Assembly (NCBI GenBank): GCA_963724515.1
Contig: CAVRUU010000002.1
Location: 2,942-66,941, forward strand
Source of the DNA: Candidatus Eiseniibacteriota bacterium
GTDB taxonomy: Bacteria; Eisenbacteria; RBG-16-71-46; SZUA-252
DNA length: 64,000 bases
Direction: 5' to 3'
Shown: piece after piece, positions 31,016-43,432 of the stretch
Layout: the number at the start of each line of letters is the position of its first letter
Position numbering within the stretch: the first letter of the stretch is position 1
Made by a program: the position numbers and the translations under genes
The notes under the pieces: model-generated
Told to the model about the DNA's origin: nothing
Seen by the model: the letters and a program-made list of their open reading frames with translations, nothing else
Databases searched by the model: none

Positions 31016-31933
31016 CTAGCGAATGACGACGAAGTGTCCCTTGATGTGGCGACCTTGGGGCGATTCTACCTGATAAATGTAGATTCCCGAGACCACCTTT
31101 CGGCCGTCCGCGTTCTTCAAGTCCCACTCGAGGTCCCCGGTCACTCCGCCGGGATTGGCGTTCGGGTTCTGGACCAGGACCCGGACCAGTTCGGCGTTGG
31201 CGGTGAAGATCCTGACCGTCGAGCCGGCCGGGAGGTGGATGAAATGAACGCGGTTCTCGCCCGGAAATGGGTCCCACTCCGCGGAGCCCCGGAACGGGTT
31301 CGGCACGACGCCCACCCGCTCGAGATTGTCGGCGGGCGGCGTGGAGGGCTGGACCGTGACGATCTCGCTCGAGTCGATGGCGCTTTCCGTGAAGTCGTTA
31401 TTGGTCGCGTGAATGGTGTCGATCGAGGTCACCGCGTACATCGAGGTAAACCCCGCGAGGTTCGCCCGATCGGCGAATACCCAGCAGCTGTCGCAGTTGT
31501 CAACCGGCGCGCCGGGAGGGTAGTCGAGGAGGTATCTGCCGCCCGAGAAGTTGTTCCGGAACCCCTTGAAGAAGATCCCGGTGCCGTAGAAGACGAAGTG
31601 GCTCGGGTCGCATGGCTCCCCGGTCGAAATGCAGGCTTCGGTGACCGTGTTCCTGGACTTGTGCTGTCCGATCAGCTCGAAGGGTGTGGGGGTGATCCCC
31701 TTGATCGTGCGGCGGACCCGGTACCCGGTCCAGACGCTGTCCGTCTCCACCTGCGCACCGGTCCAGATGAGGATGACCGTGTTTCCACCCGTGAGGCGAA
31801 AGAAGGCCCGGACTGTGTTCGGGCTCCTCGGAGGCGGAATTTGGGCGCCCGCGGGAGAGGTGACCGAGAAAAGGGCGCCTGCGACCAGCAGTATTCGGAG
31901 CGCAACCGCTGAACTCTTTGCTGAGAAAGGCAT
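31016..31933 (-). CDS. Secreted protein with an FlgD-Ig/T9SS-like C-terminal domain
   Basis: Trimmed to the ATG at 31933, 305 aa, signal peptide MPFSAKSSAVALRILLVAGALFSVTSPAGAQ. CTD: VVPNPFRGSAEW...VRIFTANAELVRVL...LEWDLKNADGRKVVSGIYIYQVE. Confidence 0.8.
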   Translation of the reverse strand: MPFSAKSSAVALRILLVAGALFSVTSPAGAQIPPPRSPNTVRAFFRLTGGNTVILIWTGAQVETDSVWTGYRVRRTIKGITPTPFELIGQHKSRNTVTEACISTGEPCDPSHFVFYGTGIFFKGFRNNFSGGRYLLDYPPGAPVDNCDSCWVFADRANLAGFTSMYAVTSIDTIHATNNDFTESAIDSSEIVTVQPSTPPADNLERVGVVPNPFRGSAEWDPFPGENRVHFIHLPAGSTVRIFTANAELVRVLVQNPNANPGGVTGDLEWDLKNADGRKVVSGIYIYQVESPQGRHIKGHFVVIR

Positions 31934-32157
31934 TAACGATCCCTTCGTACGCAAGTCTGCCCCGGCGGCACGGTACCGATTCAAATTGGCTAATTGGGGG
32001 GGAAGAGCTATGTTCCAGCCCGTTGGGAAAGCCCGGCTGGGCGGACCCGGCGCCCGCCTCCCTGCCCAGGTCCCATCGCGGGCCAGACTAGGTCGGCGTA
32101 GAGCCCAGGTCAAGGCAATTTTAAACCACGCAAACGGCCGTAAGTTCCAAAAATCGC

Positions 32158-32187
32158 TTGACACTGCGGGCCTCGGTCCCGTATACT
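32158..32187 (+). promoter_or_regulatory. Near-consensus sigma70 promoter (TTGACA-18 nt-TATACT)
   Basis: TTGACA at 32158-32163 and TATACT at 32182-32187. It drives a ~165-nt, visibly AT-richer leader before the ATG at 32358. Confidence 0.55.
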
Positions 32188-32357
32188 CTATCAAGTAATT
32201 TGATGACGTTCACTCTTCCCATTGTGAGACCACACTTCAATTTAGCTCGGCCAGAATCACGATGACTAAGGAGGTGATCGGGCTCGGAGTATTGTGATCC
32301 TTATCCTCTTGAGGGTGTCTTCTCGCTTTTACCTGCGTTAGAGAGGAGATGAATGGA

Positions 32358-34325
32358 ATGAAGAGATTACTAAGCATTGTCGCGATCCTGTTCCTGGCGA
32401 CTTCGATGCTGCCAGCGAAGGGGCATGCCCTGCTCCGAGGCGCGTTCGACTTCATCAGTGGCACAGGGTCCGATCCTTTCGTCAGAGGGAAGTTCGGCCC
32501 AGTGCTCAGGGGCGGGATCGTGACCGGGACCGGAACCGCCGCGAGCCCGATAAGGGAGCGGTGGGTGACATTCGTCACGCTGAGCTCGGCCGTGGGGAGC
32601 GAGAGCGTCGGCGAGATCTACCTGCTCAGAAACCAGGACCAATCGTTCGCCAGGGGCAACCCCGCCGAGCCGTTGGAAGTGGACCTGACGGGCGCGGTTT
32701 CTTACATCGATCCGGCCTGGTCCAAAGACGGCAAGTGGCTCGCCTACGTTCAGACGGACAACAACGTCAGCGAGGCGAGCATCTACGTACAGCAGTTCGA
32801 TACCGGCACCGCGACCGGTGCTGTGCCCTTGGGAAGCCCGATCCTCATCGCCGATGGCAGCGGCGGCCTTCACCACCGGCACCCGGCGTTCAACGGCGCC
32901 GCCACGCAGATTGCATACGACTCCGACGCGAGCGGTCCCTCGATCGACCTTTGGACCGTGGGCGTCTCGCTGGACGCGACGGCGCATACGGGGACGGTCA
33001 ATGAGGCTTCGCGCGTCCGCCACCAGGTTGGGCTCGATGCCGATAACAACCTGCTCAACGCGAAGGCTGAATTCAAGCCTGCCTTCAGCCCCGACGGCAC
33101 GAAGATCGCGTACGTGACGAATCGGTTCGGATCGTTCCAGATTCAGATCGCGACCATCACGGCCGACGGCTCCGGCGAAACCAACACGGGCGCCGAAGTG
33201 AATCCCGCGCTCGTGACCCACGACAATCCGTCCTGGTCGCCCAACGGCCTCGAGCTCTACTACGACGCGCCGGCGAACGAAGACCCGGCGAATCCTCAGG
33301 ACATCTGGAGAATCACCCTCGCGACTGGACAGAAGTGCAACATCTTCATCGATCTCGCGGGTGACGTCGATCCGGACGTCTCTCAGTACACCAACGTCAC
33401 GCGTGACGGTCTGCCCTACAACTTCTTCACGTTCATCTCTCAGGCGAACGGGCTCGGAGTCCAGGTGTGGCTGGCCGAGGCCATTCAGAACTGCGTGCCG
33501 GCGTTGGCCGTGCAGGTCCAGGCCAACCCGAGTCAGATCGACATCGATCAGGGCACCGACACGGACCTGATCAAGACGACCATCTCCTTCCCGCTCTCCA
33601 TCAGGTCGCTTGGCTACGCGTGCCGGGCGTCCAACACCGGCGGTGAAGGAATCAGGACGCGGAGAACCATCATTCCCAGCCCGACGCTGATGGGACTGAG
33701 GATGCCAAGCACGCCCGACGACGATTCCGACTGCACCAGCATGGCATTCGATGCTTTTGGTGTCGCGGACTCGACGACCTGCTCCAGCATCATCCATGAC
33801 TTCGTCGGTGACGGCAGTTTTGGATGGTGGTCTTTCGTCGATGACACGACGGTCGTCACGCCGCCCACGACGAAGAACACCAAGCTGATCTTCAACTGGA
33901 ATCGGCGGACCATCCAGGCCCAAATCGTGGCTCTCGGACTGGTGAACAAGTACGTTCCCTTGACGTATCGCGCCTACACGAACACCACGGGCCGTCAGCT
34001 CCTGGGCTTCGCGTACGTCAAGCTGGCCAAGGCTAATTACCAGGCCGGCAGCATCGTGTTGGAGCAGAACTTCCCGAACCCGTTCAACCCCGTGACGAAC
34101 ATCAAGTTCGCGGTGGATAAACCGGGTAATGTCGAAGTCCGGGTCTTCAACGTGCGCGGCGAGCTGGTGCGCACCGTCGCCAACGGGTGGTACCCGCAGG
34201 GTCTGCACGCCGTCACTTGGGATGGCAAGACCAGGAGCGGTGGCCAGGCTCCCTCGGGTGTCTACTACATCCGGGCGAAGTCGATTGGTGGCAGCGACGT
34301 GATCAAGGCGGTACTCGCGAAGTAG
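32358..34325 (+). CDS. Secreted TolB-like (PD40 beta-propeller) protein with an FlgD-Ig/T9SS-like CTD
   Basis: I prefer the second ATG (32358) because the GAGGAG RBS is 9 nt upstream of it but abuts the first ATG (32349). Signal peptide [26 protein letters not shown]40-type repeats: [39 protein letters not shown]: [16 protein letters not shown]...[14 protein letters not shown]...[20 protein letters not shown]. Spot GC counts are 55-60%, against about 70% elsewhere. Confidence 0.88.
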
Positions 34326-39254: not shown

Positions 39255-39300
39255 GTAGGGAAACGAGAAGGGCCGCCGGGGTTCCGGCGGCCCTTGTCTC
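39255..39300 (-). terminator. Rho-independent terminator after the 1209-aa gene
   Basis: A 10-bp all-GC stem (GGGCCGCCGG / CCGGCGGCCC) with a 4-nt loop at 39270-39293 and flanking A-T extension. On the minus strand it is followed by CTTCTCGTTTCCC. Confidence 0.65.
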
Positions 39301-39324: not shown

Positions 39325-42300
39325 CTACCGAACGATAGCGATCTTGAGACCGTTCAGGCTCTCGCTGCCATCGCCGTACTTCACCTTCACGAAGTACACG
39401 CCGCTGGCCAGGTTTCTGCCATCGCTCGACTTGCCGTTCCAGTGAACCTCGTTCACACCCTGCGTGGCGTTCTTCGTAATCGTCTGCACGAGACGGCCAG
39501 CGACGTCGAAGATGCGCACGTCAGCACGGCCGTTCTTCGCCGAAAGGAAGCGAATGACCGTGCTCGGGTTGAACGGGTTCGGGAAGCTTCTGTCCAGTCT
39601 GTTGGCAACCGGCGGAGCTCCCGCGACATCCACCGCCGACAGGACCTTGGTCGCATCCTGGAGCGGATAGAGCGGACCGTACGTGCCCGTGCTGAAGCCC
39701 GTAAGGGTAGCCCAGTTGCCGTACTTGTTGGCATCCGTCGGGCACGGCCAGCAGGAAGCCGTATCCGCTGTCGTCCTCGGTCCACGGCAGCTCGTCAGGA
39801 ACTTGTAGAGCACCTGAGCGCGCGTGTCGATCAGGTTCTGGCCACCCTGGCGAATGAACTGGATCGAGAAGCCGTAGCCCAAAGCCTTGTTCCGGTCGTG
39901 ATCGTTCAACACGTCACGCTCGGTCGAATAGGAGACGCCCGCGACGTTCGTCACAGAGGCGAACGTCGGGTAGGTCGCGGCATTCGAAGCATCGCCGCTT
40001 CCAACCTTGGTCAGTGCGTCAAACCGGTTCGGCGCCGGGCAGGTCCCATCTACGAAGTAGGTGTACCCACCGGTGAGCGCGGGACCCGACGCAGGATTCG
40101 CGAACAGATCCGTGACGAGCGGGAGCTGGACCGACGTGTTGCCGTTCCAGGCATTCGGAGCCGCTGCGACACCAAACACGGAACTCGACAGTAGATTTTC
40201 GTTCGGATGAGGCACGCCGCTCACCGTCAACAGTGAGCTGAAGAAATCGTCGCCCGAACCGAAGATGCACCGGTCTCCGCCGTCGGTACCCGGGGTGGGA
40301 GCTTCCCACCACAGCTTGATGAGCTTCGCGTCGGACTCTTCATCGACAACCGTCGTCGAGGTGTGCGAAGACTCGATCATGAGGCGGTACCAGATGGCCA
40401 GCGAGTCCTTGATGCTGTACTCGTCCATATTCGGGAAGTAGTTGCTCAACCGGCCGGCGCGGGTTCCTGCGAACTCGTGCCCACCGATGTGACCGCCCTC
40501 TTCCAGACCCTGCAGCGTACGGTAGCGGTCGGAGCGGACACCCAGCGCGCGCAGTGCCTGCACGGTCGCGTGGCTTCCGAAATTCCACCGCGTGTAGCTG
40601 CCGTCCAGATCGAGGAGCGGCGTATTGGTTCTGCCTGCCAGTTGGGTTCCGCCGGCGCCAGCTGCGTACACGCCCGGCAGAACGTTGAACTGGATGATAT
40701 CCGGGGCAACGATCGAGCTGCCCGGAAGCGTCGGAAGATCCTCAACCTCGCGGGCCAAACCGTCCGTCGAGAATTGATAAGAGGTTCCGCCGTTGATATC
40801 GACACCCTTCCAGTAGTACTGGACCCGGGTTCCGCGAGGCAGGAAGGCCAACTGGCTGTAAAGCGTCTTCCCGTTCACGCTGAAGCCACCCGGAAGTGAC
40901 GTGCCGGCCTTGTCGCGCGGCGGCCAGTTCACCCGGTATTCACTGTCGATCAGAGTGGTGTCGCCGGCGTTGATCCCGACCGCGTTCGCGTCGAGCTCGC
41001 TCGAGTCGAACGGGCTCCAGGTCTTGCTCGCCGGATCGAATATGCGGTAGATGATGCGCGGCTTGTCAAAGGCCGCCACGAAGTTCGGATTCGTGTGCGC
41101 GATGGTCAGACCAAAGTTCACACTCTTGTCGAACCCGTGGTGCCAGTTGACGCCCTTACCGTTCTTCCGGAGTCCCGTCGCGACGGCCAAAGTGATCGAG
41201 TCGCCGAGCGGGCTGTTGAAGTTGTCATGCACGGCGCCGTTAGCCGCGCCGGTGTCGCTGCCTCGCAGGCCGGGCCAGCACGTACCCGCTGTCACCGTGC
41301 CCGCGTTGCAACCGACGCCTGCCAACGTCCCGTCCACGAACATCGACTGAGCGACCGCGCCGACGAACACGCCGAAGATCGGCGCCGGCACGCCCGTCAC
41401 GATCTCGAGACGGAAGTTGTCGTACAGAATCCCGTAGATGACGTCGCCGCAGTTCAGATGGTCGGCGGCGAAGAACGGGATACACTGCAAGATGTAGCGG
41501 ATCTGGATCGAGTCGGCCTGGGTCGCCGCGGCCAAGTCGCCGAACTGCGTGCCCCAGGACTGCCTCGCGCCCGTGTTCACACCGCCACCCGCGTCCGTGT
41601 CGTTCCAGTTACCCCAGCTTCCGAGGGCGAAGATCCGGTACTCGGCCTGCTGGACGTATCCCTGGTTTCTCGGCAAGTCGAAATAATCATCCCACAACGC
41701 CAGCACGGAAGCCGTTCCGGCCGGAATCGGGAACGAACAGGTCACCACCGAGTTGTACTGGTTCGGCACCGTGTGGAAGTTCGCCGCGTTTCCTCCCTCG
41801 AAAATGAGGTCGGAGGAGGCGCTCTTCGGCACGCAAACGTCAGGAGTCGGCAGGAGGTTTCCGGAGACGAGCTGCCAGAGACTTCCTACTCCGGGCGCCA
41901 CGCGGGCAGAAACGATCGGAGCTCCTGCCGTACCGACGAGAACCTTGCCCCCAAACGCGTCGGTGAAGGCCGTGGCCGCTTGGTCGGTGTAGATCGCACC
42001 GTTGTCGCTGCTGGCAACGTTGTCGATCATCGCACCATGACCTTCGGGCCAGAGACCGTCTTCAGACGAATAGAGGCAGTCGGCCTTGAACACTATGTAG
42101 AGTGCCCTGTCGGCCGCCAAGAACGAGAACGAGGCGCCGGTCACCGTGACCGGTCCCGTACCCGGGTTGCTGGAGATGTTGAACGGCGCCCCAGCAACTT
42201 GTCCGGTGCCGGTCGCACCCACCGTGGCCGGGGTGATGCTGCCAGTCCACTGAATCAGATATGCCCCAGCTCCGATGATCCCGTCCAACACGCTTCTGGA

Positions 42301-42954
42301 GTTTCCGATCGGGTCGGCACCGCCGCCGCCGCCGCCGATCACCCAGACGTAGTCGTAGTTGAACTCGGCGCTGAAGTTGTAGTTGAGGGTCAAATTGTAG
42401 TTGCCGCCGTGAGCACCTGTGTCGATGTAGAGAATCTGGTAGGTGATGTTCGGATATCCGTACTTGTTCACCCAGTTGCCGTCGTACTTACCGCACCAGA
42501 TCATCCTGGTCCCGTTTAGCGCGGGAGGGCAGAGGTTCGTGCCGGTTCCTGTGGTGTTGCAAGTCGCGTTGTCCGACACATGCCACAGAGCCTCGCTCAG
42601 CGAATTGTCGCCGACGGTATACGGTCCGACTGTTCCGGCCGTGTAGGTGTCGAGCGAATCCGCCTGCGGAGAGGTCCTGGGGACCCACGTACTGGCCGCA
42701 CGTTCAGCGCACGCGCCAGGATAGAGGAACCAGGTGGTCGTCGCCTGGGACTGCTTGATCAGGTTGCCGCTCAGCGTCCCCTGATAGTTGCCGCCTGTCC
42801 GGCTCTGCCAGACTCCCGCGTGATTCTCCAGCGAGATCGGCTCCGAAGCCTTGGGCGGATCCTTCAGCGGGTCATTCGAAACCGCGGCCAGAGTGGGCAT
42901 CGCCCACAGGCCGAGTGCCACGAGACCCAACATGGCAAATAGGGTTTTCCGCAT
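39325..42954 (-). CDS. Very large secreted protein with an FlgD-Ig/T9SS-like CTD (paralogue of 2939..5785)
   Basis: I prefer the ATG at 42954 (AAGGAGG RBS 8 nt upstream) over the GTG at 42960, giving 1209 aa. Signal peptide MRKTLFAMLGLVALGLWAMPTLAA. Motifs shared with the 948-aa protein: WH(V/I)..., (I/W)WCG, FSAEFNYDY / FNAEPAYDF, YSSEDGLWPEGHGAMIDNV / YSSADGLYDGDGWIIDNV. CTD: SFPNPFNPSTVIRFLS...VRIFDVAGRLVQTI...WNGKSSDGRNLASGVYFVKV. Confidence 0.9.
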   Translation of the reverse strand: MRKTLFAMLGLVALGLWAMPTLAAVSNDPLKDPPKASEPISLENHAGVWQSRTGGNYQGTLSGNLIKQSQATTTWFLYPGACAERAASTWVPRTSPQADSLDTYTAGTVGPYTVGDNSLSEALWHVSDNATCNTTGTGTNLCPPALNGTRMIWCGKYDGNWVNKYGYPNITYQILYIDTGAHGGNYNLTLNYNFSAEFNYDYVWVIGGGGGGADPIGNSRSVLDGIIGAGAYLIQWTGSITPATVGATGTGQVAGAPFNISSNPGTGPVTVTGASFSFLAADRALYIVFKADCLYSSEDGLWPEGHGAMIDNVASSDNGAIYTDQAATAFTDAFGGKVLVGTAGAPIVSARVAPGVGSLWQLVSGNLLPTPDVCVPKSASSDLIFEGGNAANFHTVPNQYNSVVTCSFPIPAGTASVLALWDDYFDLPRNQGYVQQAEYRIFALGSWGNWNDTDAGGGVNTGARQSWGTQFGDLAAATQADSIQIRYILQCIPFFAADHLNCGDVIYGILYDNFRLEIVTGVPAPIFGVFVGAVAQSMFVDGTLAGVGCNAGTVTAGTCWPGLRGSDTGAANGAVHDNFNSPLGDSITLAVATGLRKNGKGVNWHHGFDKSVNFGLTIAHTNPNFVAAFDKPRIIYRIFDPASKTWSPFDSSELDANAVGINAGDTTLIDSEYRVNWPPRDKAGTSLPGGFSVNGKTLYSQLAFLPRGTRVQYYWKGVDINGGTSYQFSTDGLAREVEDLPTLPGSSIVAPDIIQFNVLPGVYAAGAGGTQLAGRTNTPLLDLDGSYTRWNFGSHATVQALRALGVRSDRYRTLQGLEEGGHIGGHEFAGTRAGRLSNYFPNMDEYSIKDSLAIWYRLMIESSHTSTTVVDEESDAKLIKLWWEAPTPGTDGGDRCIFGSGDDFFSSLLTVSGVPHPNENLLSSSVFGVAAAPNAWNGNTSVQLPLVTDLFANPASGPALTGGYTYFVDGTCPAPNRFDALTKVGSGDASNAATYPTFASVTNVAGVSYSTERDVLNDHDRNKALGYGFSIQFIRQGGQNLIDTRAQVLYKFLTSCRGPRTTADTASCWPCPTDANKYGNWATLTGFSTGTYGPLYPLQDATKVLSAVDVAGAPPVANRLDRSFPNPFNPSTVIRFLSAKNGRADVRIFDVAGRLVQTITKNATQGVNEVHWNGKSSDGRNLASGVYFVKVKYGDGSESLNGLKIAIVR

Positions 42955-42981
42955 TTTCACATCCTCCTTAGCGTTTCCTAA

Positions 42982-43125
42982 CTAGGAGTCCAATATCGGG
43001 AGGACAGTAGCTGGAACTTCAAAACACGGGATTCGGTACAACGAGTTGAGTCTGGAGTTGAACACTGAGGGCACCCACTCGACGGGACAGTTCTCGAGGG
43101 TTGCTGGGCGTCCTCCTTCCAACAT
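42982..43125 (-). CDS. Possible 47-aa upstream small ORF in the leader of the 1209-aa gene
   Basis: Not in the track because it is under 60 aa. AAAGGAGGT lies 7 nt before the ATG at 43125. Translation: MLEGGRPATLENCPVEWVPSVFNSRLNSLYRIPCFEVPATVLPILDS. The stop at 42982-42984 is 27 nt before the main ATG. No homology is recognisable, so it may simply be untranslated leader. Confidence 0.25.
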   Translation of the reverse strand: MLEGGRPATLENCPVEWVPSVFNSRLNSLYRIPCFEVPATVLPILDS

Positions 43126-43161
43126 TCACCTACCTCCTTTCCTCGTGTATTTGTATTGGGT

Positions 43162-43185
43162 GTTCTGATTTACGTTCTGATTTAC
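43162..43185. repeat. Perfect tandem duplication of a 12-nt unit (GTTCTGATTTAC x2)
   Basis: Read directly from the sequence: 43162-43173 equals 43174-43185. It lies in a 60-nt line with ~40% GC, ~35 nt upstream (minus-strand sense) of the small ORF's RBS. Confidence 0.9.
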
Positions 43186-43370
43186 AAGGCTGAAACGAGA
43201 ATCTGCTGTATGCGTCGGAGTCTCTCTCACCCCCTTTGTAGCGTCGTTCTCTCCAAGCGAGATTGGCTGTAACGTATTTTAGGGCATAAACAAAGAACGC
43301 CGCCCCGTCAGGCAGATGTCAGCTTCGCATTCGCTGTTGTTTCAGTTGCTTGGGACGGTAGCGGCTGTGT

Positions 43371-43392
43371 GGAAGCAAGTTATTTTGCTTCC
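43371..43392 (-). promoter_or_regulatory. 5'-proximal stem-loop of the predicted leader transcript
   Basis: Perfect 8-bp inverted repeat GGAAGCAA-6 nt-TTGCTTCC, placed a few nt downstream of the predicted transcription start. No T-run follows on either strand, so I do not call it a terminator. Confidence 0.5.
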
Positions 43393-43404
43393 ATGTACTC
43401 GGCT

Positions 43405-43432
43405 AGTATACCAAAAAAGCCGCTAATGTCAA
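43405..43432 (-). promoter_or_regulatory. Near-consensus sigma70 promoter (TTGACA-16 nt-TATACT) for the 1209-aa gene
   Basis: On the minus strand: TTGACA (43432-43427, overlapping the glyS stop codon), a 16-nt spacer, then TATACT (43410-43405). This implies a ~440-nt leader. Confidence 0.6.

Follow-up and report, generated by a model that had tools for sequence, protein, structure and literature searches.

The Escherichia coli ompA 5' untranslated region (UTR) is a stabiliser of an abundant envelope-protein mRNA. Platforms that sequester the Shine-Dalgarno (SD) sequence and standby sites for ribosomes are known from riboswitches, RNA thermometers and the tisB standby site, and the cyclic di-GMP (c-di-GMP) riboswitch classes are classic upstream of secreted surface protein genes. 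Stem-loops in the 5' UTR also stabilise highly expressed S-layer mRNAs, as in the Lactobacillus slpA leader (PMC10221546). According to passages of PMC12970973, an extra SD far from the start codon (STAB-SD, a stabilising SD) stabilises the cry3A mRNA of Bacillus thuringiensis, and 30S binding to it was proposed to block RNase access (Agaisse & Lereclus 1996, as summarised there). Here we describe a ~440-nt region between glyS and the gene of a 1,209-aa secreted protein, found in 64,000 nt of DNA from a Candidatus Eiseniibacteriota bacterium (GCA_963724515.1, contig CAVRUU010000002.1, positions 2,942 to 66,941; this whole stretch is called the window). The leader formed by this region is real, large, strongly constrained and undescribed, and its function we infer. 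We suggest, with a probability of about 0.55, that it is the 5' untranslated leader of a monocistronic mRNA for an Eisenbacteria-specific cargo of the type IX secretion system (T9SS), which stabilises this mRNA and gates its translation.

The region shares with the slpA and ompA leaders a strong promoter, a long leader opening with a stable stem-loop near the 5' end, a monocistronic mRNA, a secreted envelope protein and a strong terminator. However, those leaders have ~60-200 nt and an exposed ribosome-binding site (RBS), whereas the one found here has ~440 nt, an extra branched domain and an RBS predicted to be hidden. Its likeness to the cry3A STAB-SD lies in two upstream SD-like motifs without conserved start codon, GAAAGGAGGU (~180 nt upstream of the main ATG) and AAGGGGGUGAG (~275 nt upstream). 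It differs in being from another phylum and a Gram-negative-type organism with a T9SS, in combining two decoy SDs with CCUCC-type partners and a true SD that is itself predicted to be sequestered, and in giving no sign of 5' processing to the decoy SD. As in SD-sequestering platforms, the start codon is directly preceded by a predicted anti-SD:SD helix, and an accessible upstream ribosome-binding element could act as a standby site or anti-antisequestor. On the other hand, both strands of this helix are invariant and it is unproven by covariation, no sensor was identified, and the putative standby site lies ~170 nt from the RBS. With the c-di-GMP riboswitches (GEMM-I/II) it has in common a long leader before a large secreted protein gene, but neither of the two Rfam models matched the window or the 11 homologs searched.

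In minus-strand order, the locus comprises glyQ (46506-45541), glyS (45548-43429), a 474-nt gap and the 1,209-aa open reading frame (ORF; 42954-39325). More than 160 proteins resemble the encoded one at 50-80% identity, and where a source is named, it is Candidatus Eisenbacteria. The region was compared with about 50 related loci (designated by L numbers). A scan of GTDB genomes gave 15 loci, and the exact 22-mer GGAAACGCTAAGGAGGATGTGA, taken from the invariant 3' end of the leader, gave 42 further metagenome loci. In five close GTDB species with the upstream region (L001, L002, L006, L008 and L009), the whole gap is 81-85% identical and the proteins 68-76%. In L014 (55% protein identity) the gap is conserved in part, and in L062 and L063 (51% and 55% protein identity) the same order of glyS, leader and gene is found with the leader retained. 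Indeed, none of the glyS-adjacent orthologs examined, with protein identities as low as 51%, lacked the leader. Considering 30 loci, it has 425-454 nt and a median nucleotide identity to the window of 83%, compared with 78% for the last 300 nt of glyS and 72% for the first 900 nt of the coding sequence (CDS; 61% at the amino-acid level). In the close clade, variable columns account for 26% of the region of an upstream ORF (uORF) within the leader vs 64% of the CDS. The leader keeps both its sequence and its length, and exceeds the CDS in conservation. A lack of conserved sequence or structure in orthologous leaders had been named in the initial annotation as an observation that would speak against a cis-acting RNA, and both are conserved.

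The location of the leader is equally constant: it follows glyS and precedes the ortholog in every case, and paralogs lack it upstream. Three paralogs (L004, L007 and L060) lie elsewhere, and their short upstream regions are unrelated to the leader. Neither nhmmer nor a covariance-model search of 319 kb from these genomes revealed the leader or its 5' domain a second time; each locus has one copy, and no other was found in the window. Across a phylum-level group, the leader accompanies a single orthologous gene.

The structure was investigated with RNAalifold and with direct counts of pairs on MAFFT alignments not fitted to any structure. The elements of the promoter, leader and gene are as follows:

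43405-43432, minus strand: sigma-70-type promoter, with -35 TTGACA (43432-43427), a 16-nt spacer and a TG-extended -10 TATACT (43410-43405).
43397-43399, minus strand: predicted transcription start, placed by the sigma-70 spacing rule 6-8 nt past the -10 hexamer.
43370-43393, minus strand: P1 hairpin of 9 bp, with arms 43393-43385 and 43378-43370, a 6-nt loop and the near-invariant loop region CAAAAUAACUUG.
43299-43365, minus strand: branched domain P2/P2a, where P2 pairs GCCGCU.CC (43365-43357) with GG.GGCGGC (43306-43299).
43347-43349 and 43312-43314, minus strand: inner helix P2a, GCA (43349-43347) with UGC (43314-43312).
43288-43298, minus strand: U-rich tract GUUCUUUGUUU directly after P2, U-rich in all clades, interrupted.
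43217-43236, minus strand: SD-like motif 1 AAGGGGGUGAG (43236-43226) and P4, its hairpin to ACUCC (43221-43217).
43132-43141, minus strand: SD-like motif 2 GAAAGGAGGU, with 9-10 nt complementary to the canonical 16S 3' end.
43054-43137, minus strand: long hairpin P5-P6-P7, with the invariant loop UGUCCC.
43137-43134 and 43057-43054, minus strand: P5, GGAG with CUCC, which never varies.
43115-43106 and 43076-43067, minus strand: P6, GAGGACGCCC with GGGUGCCCUC, 6 of the 10 pairs changed on both sides.
43098-43095 and 43081-43078, minus strand: P7, CUCG with CGAG, which never varies.
42961-43005, minus strand: P8, anti-SD GUCCUCC (43005-42999) with the true SD GGAGGAU (42967-42961), predicted to sequester the RBS.
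39325-42954, minus strand: main gene, 1,209 aa, secreted, with a signal peptide and a C-terminal T9SS sorting / FlgD-Ig domain.
39261-39293, minus strand: intrinsic terminator of the main gene, a 10-bp GC stem GGGCCGCCGG/CCGGCGGCCC followed by UUCUCGUUU.

The 5' domain shows the clearest signs of selection on structure. P1 begins 5-6 nt past the predicted transcription start and is paired in 98% of cells, with 4 of its 9 pairs changed on both sides (UA/AU, AU/GC, AU/GC and GC/AU). This hairpin had been reported in the initial annotation as perfect and of 8 bp; it is indeed present, but it has 9 bp. P2 encloses ~55 nt and is also 98% paired, pair 47/105 being found as AU, UG and CG, and the P2a pair 58/96 occurs as GC (19 sequences) or as CG (13). 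Changes on both sides are found in four pairs of P1, one of P2, two of P2a and six of P6. In the 5' domain, 97% of cells are paired vs 41-46% with partners slid, and its covariation score was reached by none of 500 shuffles. For the whole leader the corresponding values are 95% vs 41-51%, with 14 pairs changed on both sides. P1, P2, P2a and P6 are kept through compensatory changes, and this, together with the conservation of the orthologous leaders, supports the initial proposal of a long leader holding a novel cis-acting RNA. Two further pairings were tried and rejected. A kissing interaction between the loops of P1 (UAACU) and P9 (AGUUA) finds no compensation in L040, L046, L063 or the P9 variants of a second clade (group-2), and P9 itself is broken in L065. 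The pairing of the start codon suggested by the alifold analysis (CCGUGU/AUGCGG) is broken without compensation in L024, L053 and L055.

Between the 5' and 3' domains there is a linker of ~130 nt, variable except for the near-invariant AAGG(G/A)GGUGAG. This SD-like motif 1 is invariant save at that one position, and P4 is 89% paired, with changes mostly one-sided and of the G-U type. The 3' domain (~190 nt) opens with GAAAGGAGGU and closes with the pairing of GUCCUCC to the true SD GGAGGAU. Its first motif, GAAAGG(A/G)GGU, is found in all 42 sequences and no conserved start codon follows it. P7 plus at least 7 enclosing pairs appear in the single-sequence minimum free energy (MFE) folds of 32 of the 42 homologs. 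P8 has 7 pairs, invariant in the 42 sequences, and a local hairpin energy of -15.1 kcal/mol; it lacks covariation because neither strand varies. Full pairing of the SD core with GUCCUCC is seen in 33/42 MFE folds computed for the 3' domain, and in those of L001, L002 and L032 the upstream GAAAGGAGGU occupies the anti-SD instead. Ensembles of the full-length leader give a mean probability of 0.65 for the SD:anti-SD helix. The mean unpaired probability in them is lowest for the true SD (0.12), intermediate for SD-like motif 1 (0.26) and highest for SD-like motif 2 (0.39), the most exposed of the three GGAGG motifs. By these folding calculations, the true SD is predicted to be mostly sequestered.

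P1 and P6 drift with compensation, and the GGAGG-type motifs and their CCUCC-type partners stay unchanged across lineages with ~50% protein divergence. This pattern fits the possibility that the SD-type motifs are held by a third partner, the invariant 3' end of the 16S rRNA (anti-SD). We also observed that the invariant P7 loop ACUGUCCCG (43098-43083) and the anti-SD segment ACUGUCCUCCCG (43010-42997) are near-duplicates that differ by a UC insertion, and they may compete for one purine-rich partner.

No known family accounts for this RNA. The whole window gave no match to Rfam 15 at gathering thresholds. At E <= 10, region 42800-43600 matched only a plant snoRNA (17 bits vs a gathering score of 50), and 11 diverse homologous leaders gave no match at E <= 1. 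A c-di-GMP class riboswitch, offered initially as a classic example for such leaders, is not supported, as neither c-di-GMP-I/II nor any other family matched in the window or the 11 homologs. The element lies between promoter and start codon on the sense strand, has compensatory structure and does not code, as a generic structured 5' leader does. It is a previously undescribed family of structured cis-acting RNA, absent from Rfam.

Two features that stand out in the window turned out to be incidental to the leader:

42982-43125, minus strand: 47-codon ORF (uORF), an open frame on conserved RNA and not a conserved gene.
43162-43185, minus strand: 12-mer GTAAATCAGAAC twice in tandem, a window-specific duplication in the variable linker.

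The uORF exists as initially annotated, with AAAGGAGGT followed by 7 nt and by the ATG (43125) that opens 47 codons ending at 42982, and with the AAGGAGG and ATG (42954) of the main gene following 27 nt after its stop. A role as a small protein or attenuation peptide is not supported. The frame is shifted in six close relatives (L001, L002, L029, L032, L033 and L052), with the downstream nucleotides still conserved; such an interruption was among the observations that the initial annotation had listed as refuting. Its start is lost in about 15/37 sequences and is TTG in one more; L054 has ACG, and the 14 more distant orthologs of group-2 have no start and early stops. Among the 23 closest relatives, the uORF is intact in 14, or 15 if the TTG start is counted. 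Counted by codon position, intact uORFs have 16/11/10 variable columns of 48, with no excess at third positions, and the main CDS of these sequences has 166/137/229 of 277. Its product has no Pfam match, and no ORF is conserved in position within the leader on either strand. An antisense ORF (43046-43168, plus strand) is frequent, its third positions coinciding with those of the uORF frame, the least variable ones; it was rejected as a gene since its position is not conserved. Because of the frameshifts, the loss of starts, the absence of codon periodicity and the lack of any ORF conserved in position, the leader is non-coding on both strands.

The tandem 12-mer had likewise been correctly located (43185-43162), and the pair is found nowhere else in the window, where 0.05 matches are expected by chance. 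A role in the conserved element is not supported: in relatives the 12-mer is single and diverged (e.g. ATAAATCAGATC) or missing, and we rejected it as a functional repeat for being unique to the window and within the variable linker. Both the uORF and the 12-mer are by-products.

The promoter TTGACA-16-TATACT was confirmed where the initial annotation had placed it, overlapping the end of glyS. It matches at 11 of 12 positions and has the TG of an extended -10, and the glyS stop TGA (43431-43429) lies inside the -35 hexamer. It is the sole promoter-like site between 42500 and 44000, where 0.3 are expected in shuffles, and it is kept as TTGAC(A/T)-16/17-TA(T/C/G)ACT in all 43 related loci that hold the region. 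In base composition, the GC content is 0.40 at 43141-43200, as had been estimated, 0.50 at 42955-43404 and 0.674 in the whole window, a background of 67% and not the ~70% first assumed. The description of the leader as the most deviant stretch is valid at the 450-nt scale, where it has the lowest GC of the window, but at 60-200 nt it is tied with an intergenic region near 32.1-32.4 kb. The latter (~32110-32380, GC 0.38-0.47 at that scale) separates the divergent ORFs 31016-32194 (minus strand) and 32349-34325 (plus strand).

The boundaries of the transcript are suggested by assembled contigs. Five independent contigs of 4.07-4.36 kb (L043, L048, L055, L056 and L058) start inside P1, 5-25 nt past the predicted start and ~420-437 nt upstream of the main ATG, and none of the five includes the promoter. 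They run unbroken from P1 into the CDS and break off 10-35 nt past the stop codon, and the end of L064 falls within the U-tract of the homologous terminator hairpin. About 20 of the 120 homologs listed come from contigs of 3.9-4.4 kb. In JGI (Joint Genome Institute) names that include a length rank, the 4-kb contigs rank within the top few hundred of their assemblies by length, which suggests that the source assemblies are metatranscriptomes, with abundant transcripts and high expression. The five contigs look like a monocistronic mRNA. A transcription start close to the main ATG, by which there would be no long leader, was a possibility raised initially; the transcript-like contigs start at the 5' hairpin. 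Other contigs of ~4 kb begin within the leader, at model positions ~104 (L064), 99 (L066), ~140 (L059) and 50 (L065), which places them at the 3' strand of P2 and the U-tract or shortly past these, and a further start was observed at model position 167. Such starts may be RNA processing sites, or assembly or coverage gaps in a structured RNA.

Matches to known families in the downstream protein are confined to its final ~90 residues (T9SS type A sorting / FlgD-Ig, in Pfam and NCBIfam). A PDB sequence search with the 1,209-aa protein had no match. The AlphaFold model is mostly beta (predicted local distance difference test score, pLDDT, 83.5; predicted template modelling score, pTM, 0.80), and Foldseek returned only generic beta-sandwich matches with template modelling (TM) scores of 0.1-0.2, none informative. 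It is plausible that this is a major surface protein.

We suggest that the leader acts after transcription. The 5'-end hairpin and the decoy SDs, far from conserved start codons, would shield the long mRNA from 5'-end-dependent decay. An SD-complementary sequence in the 5' UTR without conserved initiation, the mark of a STAB-SD, is found in 42/42 sequences, the ATG being lost in ~15/37, and by analogy the binding of 30S could block 5'-to-3' decay and so increase the half-life of this mRNA. The true SD would be held in the 7-bp helix with the upstream anti-SD GUCCUCC, and translation would therefore need the opening of this helix. Initiation might then proceed from a 30S subunit already sitting on the exposed SD-like motif upstream, used as a standby site; alternatively, the SD-like motif might compete for the anti-SD and so free initiation.

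Several observations weigh against this proposal. Protection of the 5' end presumes that Eisenbacteria have 5'-end-dependent RNases of the relevant kind. The full-length ensemble of the window's own sequence gives the SD:anti-SD helix a probability of 0.01, the SD still being 82% paired. P5, P7 and P8 are invariant, and their pairing is therefore argued from thermodynamics alone; the folding energy of the whole leader is not unusual (z = -1.1). The JGI sample identifiers had no match in a literature search intended to confirm a metatranscriptome origin, and the reading of the contigs as transcripts stays conditional on that origin. Some metagenome-type contigs (L020) likewise break just past the stop codon. 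An S-layer or abundant-protein role of the downstream protein is putative. Finally, the branched P2 domain and the U-rich tract, strongly conserved, play no part in the proposed mechanism. For the U-rich tract, the candidate roles are a terminator-like tail, binding of a protein or of S1, and pairing with the G-rich motif. Since the P2 domain and the U-rich tract are left unexplained, three other explanations stay alive, namely a riboswitch or attenuator, a protein-binding leader and a small RNA (sRNA).

The first of these is doubtful. P1, P2/P2a and the conserved unpaired nucleotides would be the aptamer for a ligand; the P2 stem and U-tract would act as a conditional terminator, or the 3' anti-SD helix as the expression platform, or both. 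The P2/P2a junction is rich in invariant unpaired bases and is directly followed by the conserved U-rich tract, the gene of a secreted surface protein is a classic context, SD sequestration is predicted, and some contigs begin right after P2 (model positions 99-104), which hints at a discontinuity. However, even the permissive Rfam searches (E <= 1-10) returned no match for the window and the 11 diverse homologs, and the domain occurs at this single locus only, while the aptamer of a riboswitch is usually found with more than one gene. Simple terminators look different, since here the U-tract has interruptions and the closing stem spans ~55 nt. A small terminator-like hairpin at 43315-43300 was rejected, as it is not conserved and its bases belong to the covarying P2/P2a helices; what follows P2 is a conserved but interrupted U-rich tract. 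Moreover, another ~300 nt of conserved leader separate the 5' domain from the gene, and full-length contigs with leader plus CDS exist. We consider just as tentatively that the leader is a new large sensing RNA, either with a 5' domain that binds a small molecule or protein, or with an array of decoy SDs and anti-SDs that titrates free 30S. If true, regulatory RNAs would gain a new class, confined to an uncultured phylum, and, in the case of titration, the synthesis of a major T9SS surface protein would be coupled to translational capacity.

Binding of a trans-acting regulator to the GGA/GGAGG motifs or to the P2 domain seems unlikely, and it is compatible with the stability and translation model rather than exclusive of it. 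Candidates would be CsrA-type repression at the SD and feedback by the secreted protein or by a secretion-stress factor. Invariant blocks of 20-25 nt are indeed found in unpaired or weakly paired regions (e.g. GGAAACGCUAAGGAGGAUGUGA), and the region of the true SD, GGAGGAUGU, resembles the CsrA core ARGGAUGU obtained by systematic evolution of ligands by exponential enrichment (SELEX). However, the GGA motifs, though abundant, are in predicted stems and not in hairpin loops, and the locus has no linked regulator gene. Eisenbacteria do have CsrA homologs, but a low frequency of functional CsrAs is predicted there (PMC13443453).

We find little reason to believe that P1, P2 and the U-tract form an independent sRNA of ~110 nt, made from the same promoter, with the mRNA produced by read-through. 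The compact structured module that ends in a GC stem and a U-rich tail, the variable linker separating it from the 3' domain and the several contigs that begin just past it would agree with this idea. On the other hand, the five contigs are continuous from P1 into the CDS, the module was never found apart from the leader, and the U-tract is poor as an intrinsic terminator. Least credible of all is that the 47-codon ORF behind AAAGGAGGU is translated and that its product or translation regulates the main gene: the ideal SD with 7-nt spacing in the window and the 14 or 15 intact frames among the 23 closest relatives speak for it, but it has the frameshifts, lost starts and flat codon positions described above and it overlies the covarying helix P6.

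Some additional observations concern the genes around the leader. In the window, glyS is represented by two overlapping ORFs (45548-44070 and 44169-43429, minus strand). Compared with the single GlyS of a relative, homology moves from frame 1 to frame 3 between nt 1218 and 1269 of the gene (window 44280-44330), and in relatives GlyS is one protein of 705-707 aa. The split is probably an assembly or sequencing indel, a pseudogene being less likely. At the end of glyS (43411-43436, minus strand) there is a weak terminator-like hairpin, CCGUU-UGACAUU-AGCGG followed by U6, whose loop carries the -35 hexamer and whose U-tract doubles as the spacer of the downstream promoter. Its stem CCG/CGG is changed to CCC/GGG in L017, and it appears to be a compact overlap of terminator and promoter. 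Right after the terminator of the main gene, a promoter-like sequence containing TTGACA, TTGACAGCCCCTGGCGGGGTTGCTAGTTT (39240-39215, minus strand), lies upstream of the ORF 39227-37548 (minus strand). Regarding the start of the main gene, a GTG at 42960 precedes the conserved ATG (42954) in the window, and in L063 (1501-1673) the gene call begins 172 nt before the conserved ATG, resulting in 1,334 aa. Gene callers extend the big ORF into the leader, and the N-termini and lengths of this protein family in databases are therefore unreliable.

For those who annotate these genomes, the locus is a warning that both the 47-codon ORF and the N-terminal extensions of the big ORF are artefacts. For RNA biologists, it offers a defined new motif in which structure, ligand binding and ribosome binding can be studied. 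To our knowledge, almost nothing is known about gene regulation in Eisenbacteria, a phylum without a cultured member, and here we have found in it a ~440-nt RNA element with clear covariation, more conserved than the protein it precedes. The mRNA of this leader appears to be among the most readily assembled long transcripts of uncultured soil Eisenbacteria in soil RNA data, and the downstream orphan T9SS protein is flagged as a probable major component of their cell surface. If the logic of the decoy SDs holds, STAB-SD-like stabilisation would reach well outside Firmicutes.

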